Shown piece by piece: positions 36,680 to 43,016 of a DNA stretch of 46,468 bases. Position numbers and translations under genes: made by a program. Below the pieces are notes generated by a model, which saw only the letters and a program-made list of their open reading frames with translations, did not search any database and was not told the DNA's origin. This DNA is from Candidatus Omnitrophota bacterium. Lineage in GTDB: Bacteria > CG03. The stretch spans positions 1 to 46,468 of the forward strand of contig VMTH01000153.1 in NCBI GenBank assembly GCA_013791745.1, written 5' to 3'. Each line of letters opens with the position of its first letter. Within the stretch, counting starts at the first letter, position 1.

Positions 36680-37141
36680 TCACAGTTCCCTGATTTTGTT
36701 GATTAGAGCGGTCGTGGAGCGGTTTTTTCTGAGTTTTACTGTTTTGACTTTGCCGCCGTAAGATCTGACAAAGGGCGAGCCGATAATCTCCGGCGCTCTC
36801 CAGTCTCCGCCTTTTACAAGAACGTCAGGCTTTATTTTTTTTATGACCCGCAGCGGGGTTTTTTCTTTAAAACCGAAAACGGCGTCAACGGATTTCAGGG
36901 CGTTCAGCACCGCGGCCCGCTCGGTAAAGCTGTTCACAGGCCGGCCGGGTTTTATGGCCCGCACCGAAGAGGACTCGTTCAGGCCTACAATAAGAATGTC
37001 GCCGAAAGATTTTGCTTCATTCAGAAGTTTTATATGCCCTGAATGAATTATGTCAAAACAGCCGTTTGTGAACACGACTTTTTTACCGCCCGCTCGGCCG
37101 CGCCGGGCCAATTCCGCCGCCGCGGAAAGTTTACATATCAT
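36680..37141 (-). CDS. hldC: D-glycero-beta-D-manno-heptose 1-phosphate adenylyltransferase (RfaE domain II type cytidylyltransferase)
   Basis: VVFTNGCFDIIHSGHIKLLNEAKSFGDILIVGLNESSSVR..KPDVLVKGGDW. Confidence 0.8.
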   Translation of the reverse strand: MICKLSAAAELARRGRAGGKKVVFTNGCFDIIHSGHIKLLNEAKSFGDILIVGLNESSSVRAIKPGRPVNSFTERAAVLNALKSVDAVFGFKEKTPLRVIKKIKPDVLVKGGDWRAPEIIGSPFVRSYGGKVKTVKLRKNRSTTALINKIREL

Positions 37142-37688
37142 TTTCCAAAAGCCCGCAGATCGTGTGTAAAATCAGAGCGTGGGCTTCCTGTATTCTGGCC
37201 GTTTTCCGGGAGGGCACGGCTATGGTGACATCCGCGGGGCCCCCCGCGCGCAATCCGGTTTTGCCGGTTAACGCGATGATTTTGATTTTTTTCTTTCTCG
37301 CGCTCCGGCAGGCCTCGATGATGTTGTTGGATTTACCGCTCGTTGTAATTGCGATAACAGCATCCCGAACGGATCCGAGGGCCTGTATCTGCCGGGAAAA
37401 AATATTTTTGTATCCGAGGTCATTACCTACCGCTGTCAGGATAGAGGTGTCGGTGTTAAGGGATATCGCGGGAAGGGCCTTTCTGTCTTTTTCAAAACGG
37501 CCCACGAGTTCCGCGGCGAAATGATTCGCGTCCGCGGCTGATCCGCCGTTTCCGAATATCAGGATCCTACCCTTTTTTTTCAGGACGCTTTTGATTATTT
37601 TAACGGCTTTTGCTATATCCGGGGAACATTCGTTTAATCTGCCCAGGAGTTGCGTCAGTTCCGCTATGTTATCGGAAAGCATTATCAT
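37131..37688 (-). CDS. gmhA: Phosphoheptose isomerase (SIS domain)
   Basis: FGNGGSAADANHFAAELVGRF, ALPAISL, ITTSGKSNNI. Confidence 0.85.
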   Translation of the reverse strand: MIMLSDNIAELTQLLGRLNECSPDIAKAVKIIKSVLKKKGRILIFGNGGSAADANHFAAELVGRFEKDRKALPAISLNTDTSILTAVGNDLGYKNIFSRQIQALGSVRDAVIAITTSGKSNNIIEACRSARKKKIKIIALTGKTGLRAGGPADVTIAVPSRKTARIQEAHALILHTICGLLENDM

Positions 37689-39013
37689 TTCATGTTCCCT
37701 ATGAAATCCGTTGTGTAGCAGCCTTTTATAAAATTTTCGTCCTGGAGGATTTTCTGATGAAGCGCTATATTTGTCGTCACGCCTTCTATTTTGAGTTCCA
37801 TCAGCGCGCGCTTCATTCTCTCTATGGCTTCTGCCCTGTCGCGGCCGTAAGTGATGATTTTGGCTATCATGGAATCATAGAACGGCGATATTTCCGAACC
37901 GTTGGTCATCGCCGTGTCCACGCGTACCCCCGGGCCGCCCGGCAGGATGAGCTTTTCTATTTTTCCCGCCGACGGCATATAATTTTCGTCTTCGGAGTTG
38001 ATCCTGCACTCCACGGCATGGCATATCTCTTTTACGTCATCCTGGCCGAGGGGCAGGTCTTGGCCCGCGGCGAGAGCGATCTGCATTTTTACCAGATCAA
38101 TGTCGGATACAAGTTCGGTCACGGGATGTTCGACCTGTATTCTGGCGTTCATCTCCATGAAATAAAAATCGTTTTTTGAAACAAGGAATTCGACAGTACC
38201 CACGGTGGTGTAATTGATCAGTTTTGCCACGCGGCAGGCTGTCTCACCGAGTTTTTTTCTCAGTTTCGCGTTTATCTGCGGCGAAGGGCCCTCTTCAAGG
38301 ACTTTCTGGTGGTTTCTCTGTATTGAGCAGTCCCTCTCGGGGAAGTAGAGCACTCTGCCTTTTTTGTCGGCGGCGATCTGTATCTCTATATGGCGCGGTG
38401 ACTCTATGTATTTCTCAACATAAAGCCCTGCGTTTGAGAAAGCGTTTTTCGCTTCGGCTCCGGCGAGTTCAAAGGCCTGCTCTATATCTTTCTCGCCGCG
38501 GACGATCCTCATGCCTTTTCCGCCGCCGCCGGCGGTGGCCTTTATTATAACCGGGTATTTGATGGCCGCGGCGATCTTTTTCGCTTCCGCGGCGTTGGCC
38601 ACTATGCCTTTTGAGCCCGGCACAACGGGTATTTTTTTCCGTTTAACAAGGTCTATGATCTCTGCTTTCTGCCCGGCCAGCGCGATCGTTTCCGCCGAGG
38701 GGCCTATGAAGCTCAGGCCGTAAGAGGCGCAAATCTCGGCGAAATGAGGGTTTTCGGCGAGAAATCCGTATCCCGGATGGACGGCGTCGCATTTTTTGAC
38801 AAGGGCCGCGCTTATTATCTGCGAAACATTCAGATAACTTGAAGCCGCCGCCGCGGGGCCTATACAGATGCAATCATCCGCCAGGCTGCAGTAAAAATTG
38901 TTCTTATCCGCTTCCGAGCACACGGCAACGGATTTAACAGACATTTCTCTCAGCGCCCTTATGATCCGCAGGGCGATCTCGCCCCTGTTGGCGACGAGTA
39001 CTTTTTTAAACAT
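37685..39013 (-). CDS. accC: Acetyl-CoA carboxylase, biotin carboxylase subunit
   Basis: MFKKVLVANRGEIALRIIRA.., ATP-grasp GGGGKGMRIV, EMNARIQVEHPVTE. Confidence 0.95.
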   Translation of the reverse strand: MFKKVLVANRGEIALRIIRALREMSVKSVAVCSEADKNNFYCSLADDCICIGPAAAASSYLNVSQIISAALVKKCDAVHPGYGFLAENPHFAEICASYGLSFIGPSAETIALAGQKAEIIDLVKRKKIPVVPGSKGIVANAAEAKKIAAAIKYPVIIKATAGGGGKGMRIVRGEKDIEQAFELAGAEAKNAFSNAGLYVEKYIESPRHIEIQIAADKKGRVLYFPERDCSIQRNHQKVLEEGPSPQINAKLRKKLGETACRVAKLINYTTVGTVEFLVSKNDFYFMEMNARIQVEHPVTELVSDIDLVKMQIALAAGQDLPLGQDDVKEICHAVECRINSEDENYMPSAGKIEKLILPGGPGVRVDTAMTNGSEISPFYDSMIAKIITYGRDRAEAIERMKRALMELKIEGVTTNIALHQKILQDENFIKGCYTTDFIGNMK

Positions 39014-39494
39014 TTTCTTCCTCTACTTCAAAGAGCTTCTGTCCCCACTCAACGACTTCCCTGTCTTTGCAGAAAACCGCGCCGATTTTCAGGTCTGCGT
39101 CGGCCATTATTTCCTGCATGATGCCCATGGAATTCACCCAGCCCAGCTTCCGGCCTTTTTTCACTTTCTTGCCGACAGAGGCAAGCAGCGTATCCCTCTC
39201 GCTTATGTGGAAAGTGCCCACAGCGGGCGATTTAAGGATTTTAGTGCGGAGCTGAGGAGGTAGAGTGTTTTCGGCGCCTGGCTGCGGGCCTGTTTCTCCT
39301 GCAGTTTCCGTATCCGATGTGTTTTCCGCTTCTCCCAGTATAACAGCCACAGGCTCTTTCTTGAGCACTATGTGCATATCGCCCTTGCTGTATTCAAATT
39401 CGCAGACATCGGTTTCGCCCAGGACTTCCATTATTTTTTTTAAATTTAATTCTTCCTCCGGGCCCGACTGTTCCGCTGCTGAGTTTTTTCTCAT
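39006..39494 (-). CDS. accB: Biotin carboxyl carrier protein-like (AccB homologue lacking the biotinyl-lysine)
   Basis: Position between efp and accC. The C-terminal biotinyl-domain fold is alignable to E. coli ..[20 protein letters not shown].., but here reads ..GRKLGWVNSMGIMQEIMAD.. (Gly codon at 39123-39125 where Lys is expected). Confidence 0.75.
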   Translation of the reverse strand: MRKNSAAEQSGPEEELNLKKIMEVLGETDVCEFEYSKGDMHIVLKKEPVAVILGEAENTSDTETAGETGPQPGAENTLPPQLRTKILKSPAVGTFHISERDTLLASVGKKVKKGRKLGWVNSMGIMQEIMADADLKIGAVFCKDREVVEWGQKLFEVEEENV

Positions 39495-39503
39495 TGATGC
39501 CTG

Positions 39504-40058
39504 CTATGTCCTTTCCAGATATTTACCGGTGCGGGTGTCAATTTTTATCCTGTCGCCCTCGTTTATAAAAAGCGGCACCTTCACCTCAAGGCCGTTTTTA
39601 AGCCTGGCCGGTTTTTGCACGTTTGAAACGGTGTCGCCCCGGGCTCCGGGTTCTGTGTATACCACTTCCATTTCAACGGAAGGCGGGAGTTCAACGTCTA
39701 TGATCTTTCCCTCTGTCATGACAATAACCACTTTCATGCCTTCCACGAGGAATTGCTCGCTCAGTCCGATGGTGCCTTTCCTTATTTCCTGCTGCTCGTA
39801 GTCGGCATCCATGAAAACGAGGCTGTCTCCCGATTCATATGAATAGTTGACGGAGGTGCGCGTCACTTCAGGGGATTCGAATTTTTCCCCGCCCCGGAAA
39901 GTTCTTTCAATGGTCGCGCCGCCGAAAACGTCTTTCATCTTCACTCTCATTATCGCGGGGCCTTTGCCCGGCTTGTGATGCTGAAACCATATTATGCGGT
40001 AGAGCTTGTCGCCCACCTTTATATAGACGCCGTTTGAAAAATCAGAAGTACTTATCAT
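39504..40058 (-). CDS. efp: Elongation factor P
   Basis: MISTSDFSNGVYIKV..HHKPGKGPAIMRVKMKD.. Typical EF-P N-terminus and KPGKG loop. Confidence 0.95.
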   Translation of the reverse strand: MISTSDFSNGVYIKVGDKLYRIIWFQHHKPGKGPAIMRVKMKDVFGGATIERTFRGGEKFESPEVTRTSVNYSYESGDSLVFMDADYEQQEIRKGTIGLSEQFLVEGMKVVIVMTEGKIIDVELPPSVEMEVVYTEPGARGDTVSNVQKPARLKNGLEVKVPLFINEGDRIKIDTRTGKYLERT

Positions 40059-41038
40059 CCTAAAACCCTCGCTTTGTCCTCCAGGACATAAACATCTTCC
40101 ACCCGCACCCCGCCGATGCCGCTGAAATAAAGGCCCGGCTCAAGAGTGAAAACCATCCCTTTCTCAAATTTTGCCCTTTCCCGGCAATTTATGGCTGGCC
40201 ATTCATGGACATCAAGCCCTATGCCGTGGCCGGCGGAATGGAGTATGTTTTTTTCAAAACCCTGATCGGCGAGATATTTTTTTATCATCCTGCCTATCCC
40301 GCCTATCTCCGCGCCCGGCACAATATGCGGCAAGGCCGTCTCTCTTGCCTTTTTCACCGCCGCGTAAGCCCTGCCTAAAAGAGTTTTTATGTTAAATAAT
40401 CCCTTCATTCTCGTCAAGTCAGCGCGATAATCCTTATATATGACACCCATGTCTATGAGCGCTGCGCCGCGCCGTGAGTATTTTTTTCCGGAAGGGATGT
40501 GGTGGGGATATGCGCTGTTCGCGCCGAAAGCGACAATAGGCTCAAACGCCGGCCCGCCGGATAGAGAGTGCGCGCGCGCGGATATATAAGAGGCGGCGTC
40601 TCTCTCGCTCATTCCCTCTGTCAAACGCACTCCGGAGCAGAGGCGCTTACTTATTTTTTGGGCCGTGGCTATCTTCTTTATTTCTCCGGGCTCTTTTAAT
40701 GCGCGTATCTTCGCAAAAAGCGGCTCTTTTTTAATGACAGTACAGCCGGTCATTTTCTTTAAGGCCGAAAGAGACGATACGGATATTTTGGAAGGCTCAA
40801 TGCCGGTTTTCCCCAGTTTTATATTTTTCAGTTCCGCCACAGGCACTGTCCATTTTTTTTTGCAGGGGGAAAGGCTGTTCAGAAAGAGCCTGGCCCCGCC
40901 TCTGTTAAAGAGGAGGTAGGCTCCATCTGTGCGCATCCCTGTAAAATAAAATATATCCGAAGGGTCGCAGGTGACGGCCGAGTCAAGGCCGTTTTGTTCC
41001 AGCAAGCGAGCGAGCCTCCCGCAGCGGAGGGTGTTCAT
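40055..41038 (-). CDS. M24-family Xaa-Pro aminopeptidase
   Basis: Metal ligand blocks ALIDMGVIYKDYRADLTR, HGIGLDVHEWP, EPGLY..GGVRVEDV. Conserved aroQ-pepP-efp neighbourhood. Confidence 0.85.
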   Translation of the reverse strand: MNTLRCGRLARLLEQNGLDSAVTCDPSDIFYFTGMRTDGAYLLFNRGGARLFLNSLSPCKKKWTVPVAELKNIKLGKTGIEPSKISVSSLSALKKMTGCTVIKKEPLFAKIRALKEPGEIKKIATAQKISKRLCSGVRLTEGMSERDAASYISARAHSLSGGPAFEPIVAFGANSAYPHHIPSGKKYSRRGAALIDMGVIYKDYRADLTRMKGLFNIKTLLGRAYAAVKKARETALPHIVPGAEIGGIGRMIKKYLADQGFEKNILHSAGHGIGLDVHEWPAINCRERAKFEKGMVFTLEPGLYFSGIGGVRVEDVYVLEDKARVLG

Positions 41039-41472
41039 TTTTTCTTTAACAGCGAAACAAGAGCCCTCAGCGCGAGCATATATGATTCAGAACCGAACCC
41101 GCTTATCTGACCGGCGCACACCGGCGCGGTCATGGATTTGGACCTGAAATCCTCTCTTGAATATATGTTGGACATGTGAGCTTCGGCAAAAGGGATCTTG
41201 GCGGCTTCTATGGCGTCTCTTATGGCCACGGATGTGTGGGTGTAGGCCGCGGGATTTATCACGGCTCCGTCATATTTTTCATCCGCGCTTCCTATCTCGG
41301 ACACTATGTCGCCTTCAGACGCGCTCTGGTAGAAGCTCACCTCCACGCCGAGTTCCTGAGCGAGCGCGCTTATTTTTTTGTTTATTTCAGCAAGCGTTTC
41401 AGCGCCGTAAACCGAGGCGTCTCTTTTACCCAGCTTATCCATGTTGGGACCGTTGATCACAAGTATTTTCAT
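41035..41472 (-). CDS. aroQ: Type II 3-dehydroquinate dehydratase
   Basis: MKILVINGPNMDKLGKRD..YG, INPAAYTHTSVAIRDA, HMSNIYSRE. GGAGG 5 nt upstream of the ATG at 41472; the listed start 41544 is an extension. Confidence 0.9.
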   Translation of the reverse strand: MKILVINGPNMDKLGKRDASVYGAETLAEINKKISALAQELGVEVSFYQSASEGDIVSEIGSADEKYDGAVINPAAYTHTSVAIRDAIEAAKIPFAEAHMSNIYSREDFRSKSMTAPVCAGQISGFGSESYMLALRALVSLLKKK

Positions 41473-41494
41473 ATTTCCTCCCGCTTTCGCATCC

Positions 41495-42418
41495 TCACAA
41501 TTTTCCATTATATAAAATTTTTTCGATTTCCGCCGCTGTTTCATCCGGGTTTTTGTTAAAAACGCTGATTCCGACGGCGCCTTTTTTTCTCCACCAGATC
41601 TCCTGTTTCCTTGAGAGCTGATGCGTTCTGAATTTTATTTTTTCCGCGGCTTCCGCCAGAGTGAGTTTTCCCCTGATGTGTTCAAGTATTTCCTTATATC
41701 CTATGGCCGAGAAAGGCGGCGCGCTTTCCGGCACTCCTCTTTTTAATATCCTCAGAACCTCCTTTACAAGTCCCTTCGCTATCATCCAGTCAACCCTTTC
41801 GTCTATCCTGCGGTAAAGTTCCTCTCTCGGCATTGAAAGAAAAAACACTTTCAGGGGAATGCCGGATATGAAATTTTTCGCCAGCGCCTCGCCGGGCGGC
41901 AGACCGGTGACGCGGCGGATCTCAAGAGCTCTTCCGACCCTGCGCGGATTTCGTTTGTCAATGGAGGAAAACATCGCGTAATCGGCTTGCTCCAATTCTT
42001 TCAGCTGCTCTTCCAGCGTCATGGCCGCGACCTCGGCGCGTATTTTCGCCGATGAAGGTATGGGAGAAATACCGTCTTTAAGAGAGCTGATGTAAAGGCC
42101 GGTTCCGCCGCATATGATAGGTAATTCGGCCCGCCGTTTGATTTTCGCCGCGATTCGCCGGGCGAGGATCACAAAATCTCCGGCAGAAAACTGTTTTTCG
42201 GGATCCCTGCATCCCACAAGATAATGCTTTATTCTTTTCCTCATCGAAGCAGGAGGTTTGGATGTGCCGATGTTGAAATATTTGTAAACGCTCTGCGAGT
42301 CGGCGTTTATTATCGCCCCGTTTGTCCTCAGCGCCAACGCGAAAGCCGTGTCGGTTTTTCCTGAAGCCGTGGAGCCGGTAATCACCGGAACCGCTGAAAC
42401 AGCCGGCGGTATCTTCAT
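41495..42418 (-). CDS. miaA: tRNA dimethylallyltransferase
   Basis: P-loop ITGSTASGKTDTA, INADSQSVYKYFNIGTSKP. The start at MKIPPAV (42418) gives an ATGA overlap with the upstream gene; the listed start 42553 is an extension. Confidence 0.9.
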   Translation of the reverse strand: MKIPPAVSAVPVITGSTASGKTDTAFALALRTNGAIINADSQSVYKYFNIGTSKPPASMRKRIKHYLVGCRDPEKQFSAGDFVILARRIAAKIKRRAELPIICGGTGLYISSLKDGISPIPSSAKIRAEVAAMTLEEQLKELEQADYAMFSSIDKRNPRRVGRALEIRRVTGLPPGEALAKNFISGIPLKVFFLSMPREELYRRIDERVDWMIAKGLVKEVLRILKRGVPESAPPFSAIGYKEILEHIRGKLTLAEAAEKIKFRTHQLSRKQEIWWRKKGAVGISVFNKNPDETAAEIEKILYNGKL

Positions 42419-42855
42419 TCTTCTATGAATTTTAAAAAAGCTTCTATGTCCAGGTCGGTGTCGGCGCAGCCGTCGCGGGAAAGGGGGAAGAACTGAACGG
42501 GTATCTTGAATTCCCCGCAGATCTTCTGGCCTAAAAACCCTTCCCATTGGCACGCGATACCTATGACACCGCCGGGCTTGTCTTTTTCAAAAAGAGAGGG
42601 TATTATTTTCCCGCCTTTGAGTATATAAACTTTTTTATATCCGAGTTCCGAGGCCTTCTTCCGGATAGTTTTGATCTTGCACGCTCCGCAGTCCGCGCAG
42701 ATAAAAAACGGGCCCGATTCTTCGGCGGCGCATTTTTTGGAATTTCTCAGGCACTGCGGGATCAGGATCATCCTTCCGGAAAAAGGGATCTTGAGAAATT
42801 TTTTCCGGTTTTTTTTATTTGTTGCAGCAACCTGTTTTGTATATTTGTCTTTCAT
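42415..42855 (-). CDS. DUF116-type Cys-rich protein
   Basis: The pattern LIPQCL..C..(x)..CADCGACKI..GG..VIGIAC..GC resembles DUF116 family members. Function unknown. Confidence 0.55.
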   Translation of the reverse strand: MKDKYTKQVAATNKKNRKKFLKIPFSGRMILIPQCLRNSKKCAAEESGPFFICADCGACKIKTIRKKASELGYKKVYILKGGKIIPSLFEKDKPGGVIGIACQWEGFLGQKICGEFKIPVQFFPLSRDGCADTDLDIEAFLKFIEE

Positions 42856-42943
42856 AATTTGCTTAACATGCCGGCAGGGAACCGCCGTTAATGGCGGTAA
42901 AATAATCTATCGCTCCCTGTTAACTTCTTCTTAAAATGTAACA

Positions 42944-43016
42944 TGCCGGGGGACGGAATCGAACCGCCGACACGCTGATTTTCAGTCAACTGCTCTACCG
43001 ACTGAGCTACCCCGGC
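42944..43016 (-). tRNA. tRNA-Phe: tRNA-Phe (anticodon GAA), 73 nt, no encoded CCA
   Basis: The minus-strand GCCGGGGTAGCTCAGTCGGTAGAGCAGTTGACTGAAAATCAGCGTGTCGGCGGTTCGATTCCGTCCCCCGGCA folds into a cloverleaf: 7-bp acceptor, GCTC/GAGC D stem, CTGAAAA anticodon loop, GGTTCGATTCC T-arm. Confidence 0.92.

Follow-up and report, generated by a model that had tools for sequence, protein, structure and literature searches.

A lysine-less BCCP paralogue in the accB position of an Elusimicrobiota efp-accC operon, a candidate bacterial analogue of plant BADC

Results

Gene order and the hairpin tip of the operonic BCCP

On the minus strand of the window, by which we mean the whole 46,468-nucleotide stretch of DNA analysed, a lysine-less BCCP paralogue of 162 aa (39006..39494; identified from the ORF, profile and phmmer matches, an AF2 model and fold matches) is encoded between efp and accC. 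Directly upstream lies efp, for elongation factor P (39504..40058, profile match), preceded by pepP, for an M24 Xaa-Pro aminopeptidase-like protein (40055..41038); these are part of a conserved pepP-efp-BCCP-accC string. Upstream of the string and co-directional with it is aroQ, for a type II 3-dehydroquinase (41035..41544). On the other side come accC, encoding a biotin carboxylase of 442 aa (37685..39013; TIGR00514 628 bits, just over the cut-off of 626.5), and a SIS-domain (GmhA-like) gene (37131..37688), which overlaps the end of accC by 4 nt and is a neighbour outside ACC. All are on the minus strand. They fall within a long co-directional run at 36680-43016 (-) with start/stop overlaps of 4-8 nt, in the order aroQ, M24 peptidase, efp, BCCP, accC, SIS/GmhA-like and cytidylyltransferase-like genes.

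By the ORF coordinates the BCCP stop codon (39006-39008) and the accC ATG (39013) overlap over 8 nt (39006..39013, minus strand), which suggests translational coupling of the two genes. An earlier sequence-only reading of this DNA had placed the gene in the efp-accB-accC position with an 8-nt accC overlap, and the coordinates confirm both. Taken as stop-to-stop frames, the BCCP gene and accC overlap or abut in 8/9 family orthologues, with a gap of ~145 nt in the remaining one (G006).

The translation of the ORF at 39006-39494 (-), which contains GKKVKKGRKLGWVNSMGIMQEIMADADLKIGAVF and KKGRKLGWVNSMGIMQEIMADADLK, has a BCCP N-terminal domain (residues ~17-46) and, towards the C-terminus, a biotinyl-like domain (~83-160), the two joined by a linker of low conservation. 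Using phmmer against PDB sequences, we aligned it with the E. coli BCCP entries 4hr7_B, 1a6x, 3bdo and 1bdo, the alignment with 4hr7_B covering residues 17-157 (E 2.8e-7). The hairpin segment VNSMGIMQEI aligns gap-free to E. coli BCCP and puts Gly124 at the position of Lys122. The tip reads SMGIM, and the biotinyl-lysine of the (A/V/S)MKM motif is replaced by this glycine, which the translation and the E. coli BCCP alignment assign to the GGC codon at 39123..39125 (-). The gap-free alignment agrees with the earlier claim of an AccB homologue with glycine (GGC, 39123-39125) for the biotinyl-lysine. Its companion claim, that no other lysine lies at the tip, also stands: we found none in the window's protein at the hairpin tip or within seven residues of Gly124, the closest being K116 (8 before) and K135 (11 after). 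Because the hairpin tip is without lysine, the protein cannot be biotinylated at the canonical site, and since the defining BCCP feature, the biotinyl-lysine, is missing we do not count it among the carriers. The earlier description of the gene was correct in all details.

PF00364 (biotinyl/lipoyl domain) barely passes, at 22.8 bits against a cut-off of 22.1. TIGR00531 aligns over positions 5-155 of 156 and scores 64.5 bits, below its cut-off of 115.2, a weak test that the genome's own canonical BCCP (see below) also fails (93.5 bits) and that 7/14 control genomes pass. An AF2 model built from a 12-sequence alignment is of low confidence (pLDDT 59) and too poor for surface analysis; in it Gly124 falls in a turn, with one strand before (116-120) and one after (126-130), and the PDB structures that it matches best are the biotinyl domains of E. 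coli and Arabidopsis BCCP (TM 0.71-0.77, target-normalised). The thumb, TPSPDAKAF in E. coli, is shortened by 2 residues with loss of the PSP motif (FHIS--ERDTLL) in all nine family orthologues, and this loss is specific to the family: the BCCPs encoded after pnp and the other efp-linked BCCPs differ. Compared with E. coli AccB/BCCP (TIGR00531; 1BDO, 4HR7), the protein shares the three-part architecture, the efp-accB-accC slot and the fold; it differs in the glycine for biotinyl-lysine, in a thumb two residues shorter and without PSP, and in extra invariant tryptophans, described below.

A canonical carrier and the remaining biotin system

The genome from which the window derives (G000) is a MAG of 2.0 Mb, 97% complete and with 3.8% estimated contamination. 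It encodes a second, canonical BCCP (C183:9268-9747), which contains IVEAMKVMNEIE and SIVEAMKVMNEIE. The tip of this protein reads EAMKVMNEIE, its thumb is complete, and its gene shares 4 nt with the end of pnp. The genome-wide search also gave accD (C40:9725-10540), accA (C144:3062-4060) and a short (203 aa) BirA-type ligase (C186:203-814), the only biotin-protein-ligase candidate. This ligase aligns with positions 3-165 of 235 in TIGR00121 at 74.5 bits, under the cut-off of 83.1, and its C-terminal domain appears from the sequence to be missing. GcvH, FabF and BioY (C115:8143-8568) are present. With accD, accA, the BirA-like ligase, BioY, FabF and a separate carrier, the genome is otherwise fully equipped for ACC and the steps around it. 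The sequence-only reading had held that fatty-acid synthesis initiation would need explaining if the lysine-less gene were the only accB. It is not, and because a canonical BCCP is encoded after pnp the start of fatty-acid synthesis needs no special explanation.

No BioB above the family cut-off was found in this genome (best 97.5 bits vs 225), and BioY without BioB suggests biotin auxotrophy with uptake. Given auxotrophy, a biotin-saving advantage of a lysine-less copy is conceivable, as speculation.

The carboxylase served by AccC

The window AccC has intact catalytic motifs (GGGGKG, EMNARIQVEHPVTE and ECRINSED) and an intact ATP-grasp, and its best PDB matches are the ACC biotin carboxylases 4mv1 and 1bnc (E ~1e-145). 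The AccC beside the efp-linked BCCP is the only biotin carboxylase homologue in the close relatives G001, G003 and G004, where no second one was found, and in most other genomes of the phylum. Because it is the sole biotin carboxylase in those relatives, AccC of the window type must serve ACC. Judged by these sequences, the window AccC must be an ACC enzyme partnered with the pnp-linked carrier.

G000 itself has a second biotin carboxylase of PRK08654 type at the start of a contig (C106:80-1555), and a PycB/OadA-like protein (C46:2789-4452) with its own VLEVMKMQ biotinyl domain, inside which it is cut by the contig end. The PRK08654-type carboxylase and PycB-like genes are adjacent in G002, and the pair in G000 probably makes up a pyruvate carboxylase of two subunits whose genes were separated by a break in the assembly. 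We also considered the window accC as the pyruvate carboxylase subunit for the PycB-like protein and rejected this, since it is the sole biotin carboxylase in close relatives and since in G002 it is the second accC that adjoins the PycB-like gene.

Two BCCP loci across Elusimicrobiota

In 26 Elusimicrobiota genomes, all metagenome-assembled, we find two recurrent BCCP arrangements, pepP-efp-BCCP-accC (the efp slot) and rpsO-pnp-BCCP (the pnp slot). The gene order of the efp slot is kept in every phylum genome with an assembled locus. True loss of the efp-slot BCCP in G007 and G013 was rejected, efp and accC being missing there too, which indicates that the locus is unassembled; true loss of the pnp-slot BCCP in G014 was rejected in the same way, pnp also being missing. 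The rpsO-pnp-accB order is fixed in 20/20 genomes with an assembled locus (C183:9268-12195 in G000; L051-L059, L068-L079), and we know of no reason for a coupling of the ACC carrier to PNPase.

The tip of the pnp-slot protein reads (I/V/L)EAMK(V/L)MNE, with a full thumb, in 20/20 genomes, and its lysine is never lost. The efp-slot tips read S(M/L)GI in the window's family and elsewhere either ESMKIMKEI, with lysine, or ESMNIL, ESMSIL, ESMNVL and ETMNIT, without it. We built a tree of the BCCPs leaving out the tip columns. In it the pnp-slot clade (support 99/95) has lysine throughout and the efp-slot clade (support 97/88) holds 13 non-lysine and 6 lysine members, the efp-slot proteins of the window's family standing on a long stem branch. 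The pattern within the efp slot takes 4 state changes (bootstrap range 4-5), of which at least 3 are forced by well-supported branches. The sequences thus indicate that lysine was lost repeatedly in the efp slot, at least 3-4 times, and never in the pnp slot.

In the genomes of other phyla that served as outgroups, the BCCP of the efp/pepP-accC slot has its lysine. On this ground we take the efp slot to be where accB originally lay, and the pnp-linked gene to be an added copy, which retained the canonical features. As a lysine-bearing efp-slot protein stands beside the canonical copy in other Elusimicrobiota, the operonic role may have diverged before the lysine was lost.

Conservation and selection at the glycine tip

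The relatives of this Elusimicrobiota MAG include 'Elusimicrobia bacterium HGW-Elusimicrobia-2'. We sampled 10 genomes of the window's family and found 9 orthologues of the efp-slot BCCP. The motif G(W/Y)(V/I)(N/D)(S/C)(M/L)GI is common to all nine, and LGWVNSMGI occurs in 13 metagenome proteins of 46-74% identity; orthologues and metagenome proteins together span 46-100% identity and share S(M/L)GI, and with it the lysine-to-glycine change. A wrong base at the glycine codon, or a canonical accB brought in by a contaminant, could be invoked in a MAG with the contamination estimate given above. A change from a lysine codon (AAR) to GGC requires two base changes, however, and the codon for the tip glycine differs between genomes (GGC, GGA or GGG), the residue itself occurring in independent assemblies. 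Since two changes are needed, and since the glycine recurs with varied codons in the nine orthologues and the 13 metagenome proteins, it is not due to chance or sequencing error. As to the canonical copy, no genome of the family is without the pnp-slot locus, and the pnp-slot proteins of the genus branch in broadly the order of their efp-slot counterparts (G000 with G003, then G004; G001 and G002 outside). An artefact of either kind is refuted by the orthologues, and we give it practically no credence.

Among 12 sequences (45-100% identity), G118, W119, V120, N121, S122, M123, G124, I125 and Q127 are invariant, against 44/162 positions over the whole protein, and the hairpin is its best-conserved part. 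The N-terminal BCCP domain is likewise rich in invariant residues in this alignment. Newly invariant in the efp-slot proteins of the window's family are W119, N/D121, S122, G124, I125 and W150, the two tryptophans being absent from canonical BCCPs. Pairwise dN/dS within the genus is 0.06-0.32 for the efp-slot BCCP, against 0.12-0.46 (canonical BCCP) and 0.03-0.05 (accC); the efp-slot gene is under purifying selection.

These data bear on whether the gene is a decaying accB relic left after takeover by the pnp-linked copy. Repeated loss of lysine in the efp slot, a shortened thumb and a TIGR00531 score under that of the pnp-slot copy would all be consistent with decay. Yet the frame is intact in the nine family orthologues and the 13 metagenome proteins, dN/dS is similar to that of the canonical copy, and the hairpin residues stay the same even where the glycine codon changes; decay is largely refuted and we consider it very improbable. 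Equally slight, in our view, is the chance that the protein still carries biotin, attached at some non-canonical site or held non-covalently. Three orthologues (P0005, P0006 and P0008) do have a lysine two residues past the glycine (SMGIKQ), but the residue found there differs among orthologues (M, T, A, K, N, R, P, Q), leaving no conserved hairpin lysine. The biotin ligase is also strict about lysine position, a shift of one residue in E. coli BCCP abolishing biotinylation, and a canonical carrier exists.

Variable Lys/Arg-rich N-terminal tails of up to ~50 aa precede the BCCP N-terminal domain in P0005, P0008, P0010, P0013, P0014 and P0015; compared with these long basic tails of its orthologues, the window's protein has a short N-terminal tail only.

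Discussion

A non-biotinylatable partner of AccC

We lean towards the view that the efp-slot protein is a non-biotinylatable partner of AccC, a bacterial analogue of plant BADC that evolved independently of it. The lysine-less paralogue would have stayed in the ancestral accB slot, where it would be made together with AccC, and the second, pnp-linked canonical BCCP would have taken over as carrier. The lysine-less protein retains the BCCP N-terminal domain and a predicted well-folded biotinyl-like domain, and because both are retained it most likely still binds AccC. Homology and gene linkage are what point to this binding; an effect on ACC activity is likewise inferred. The protein may thereby bind AccC, and possibly the canonical BCCP too, as a non-catalytic fifth ACC subunit, serving either as a scaffold of an AccC-BCCP subcomplex or as an occupant of carrier sites that damps activity or flux, as proposed for BADC. 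The sequence-only reading had pointed to negative regulation as in plants; this is kept as one option and not the sole one, an assembly ('glue') role fitting the data as well.

One could go further and regard the Elusimicrobiota ACC as a five-subunit enzyme, in which an obligatory biotin-free BCCP paralogue accompanies AccC and the carrier comes from the rpsO-pnp operon. We put this forward tentatively, as a possibility somewhat short of even. Were it true, the operonic AccB would have an essential structural or regulatory role separable from biotin carrying, and bacteria would have converged on the plant BADC solution; biotin saving in an auxotroph may add selection.

The protein could instead be a regulator or chaperone of AccC alone, outside the working holoenzyme. 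E. coli AccB has non-carrier functions, autoregulation of accBC and stabilisation of AccC. The conserved N-terminal domain, the 8-nt overlap with accC and a carrier encoded elsewhere all accord with such a role; conservation nevertheless peaks in the biotinyl-like hairpin, which a role confined to the N-terminal domain would not need, and we think this explanation unlikely.

The combination of a Gly-Ile tip with the new tryptophans (W119 and W150) could reflect binding to a new partner that has nothing to do with ACC. In that event the protein would be a barrel-sandwich adaptor docking on a non-ACC partner, its proximity to accC merely historical. Besides the newly invariant residues W119, N/D121, S122, G124, I125 and W150, the shortened thumb and the long stem branch fit an adaptor of this kind. 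But throughout the phylum every assembled locus retains the link with accC, no other partner gene is conserved nearby and the N-terminal BCCP domain is kept, which makes such an adaptor improbable, a little more so than a dedicated regulator of AccC.

Relation to plant BADC

If the efp-slot protein is a partner of AccC, as we favour, its closest functional parallel is BADC, as the sequence-only reading had proposed: both are lysine-less BCCP homologues beside a canonical BCCP. BADC (Arabidopsis BADC1-3, from the plastid heteromeric ACC of plants and green algae) is similarly BCCP-derived and without the biotinyl-lysine. The expected action would also be the same, that of a non-catalytic subunit binding BC and/or BCCP. 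It differs from BADC in being bacterial and encoded in an operon with accC, with which it is probably translationally coupled, and its S(M/L)GI tip is its own and not that of BADC. For plant BADC an inhibitor role was proposed, and later plant work supports an assembly ('glue') role as well. Since tree and synteny place its origin inside the efp-slot accB lineage of Elusimicrobiota, the protein would be an analogue and not a member of the plant clade. We infer this independent origin from the Elusimicrobiota tree and synteny.

That no bacterial equivalent had been described agrees with the literature we searched, in which we found no bacterial lysine-less AccB and in which BADC is called 'unique to the plant htACCase' (PMC11926652). 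Non-biotinylated BCCP-like subunits have been seen as a plant speciality, and a bacterial, operon-encoded analogue would change that. What the present analysis adds is the phylum-wide pnp-linked canonical carrier, the loss of lysine in the efp slot only, and the finding that the adjoining AccC is the sole biotin carboxylase in close relatives. In effect, Elusimicrobiota offer a clean natural experiment: of their two paralogous BCCP loci, one has lost the lysine repeatedly and the other never has. If our reading is true, the carrier and non-carrier roles of AccB are separable, and a simple system, reconstitutable in E. coli, would be at hand for the question of scaffold versus restraint that is still disputed in plants. 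For annotation, the 'accB'-slot gene of these genomes should not be named the ACC carrier; the gene that encodes the true carrier is the one linked to pnp.

Other BCCP-like proteins without the tip lysine

When 1.84 billion representative proteins were searched with a profile, only 6 clusters came out at E<1e-30, and this particular Gly-tipped clade is therefore small. Among the best 150 profile hits, 13 clusters outside the clade are also without the tip lysine, a count that is no estimate of frequency, the ranking being biased by the glycine in the profile. A quick tree suggested a common origin with Gly-tipped proteins elsewhere (support 87); we do not accept this, as that tree included the tip columns and had long branches. 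BCCP-like proteins with R, N, S or G at the tip for lysine include P0026, P0037, P0067, P0078, P0079, P0090, P0108, P0113, P0115, P0131, P0133 and P0155, and the loci L041 (G033) and L046 (G037) likewise encode BCCP-like proteins without the tip lysine.
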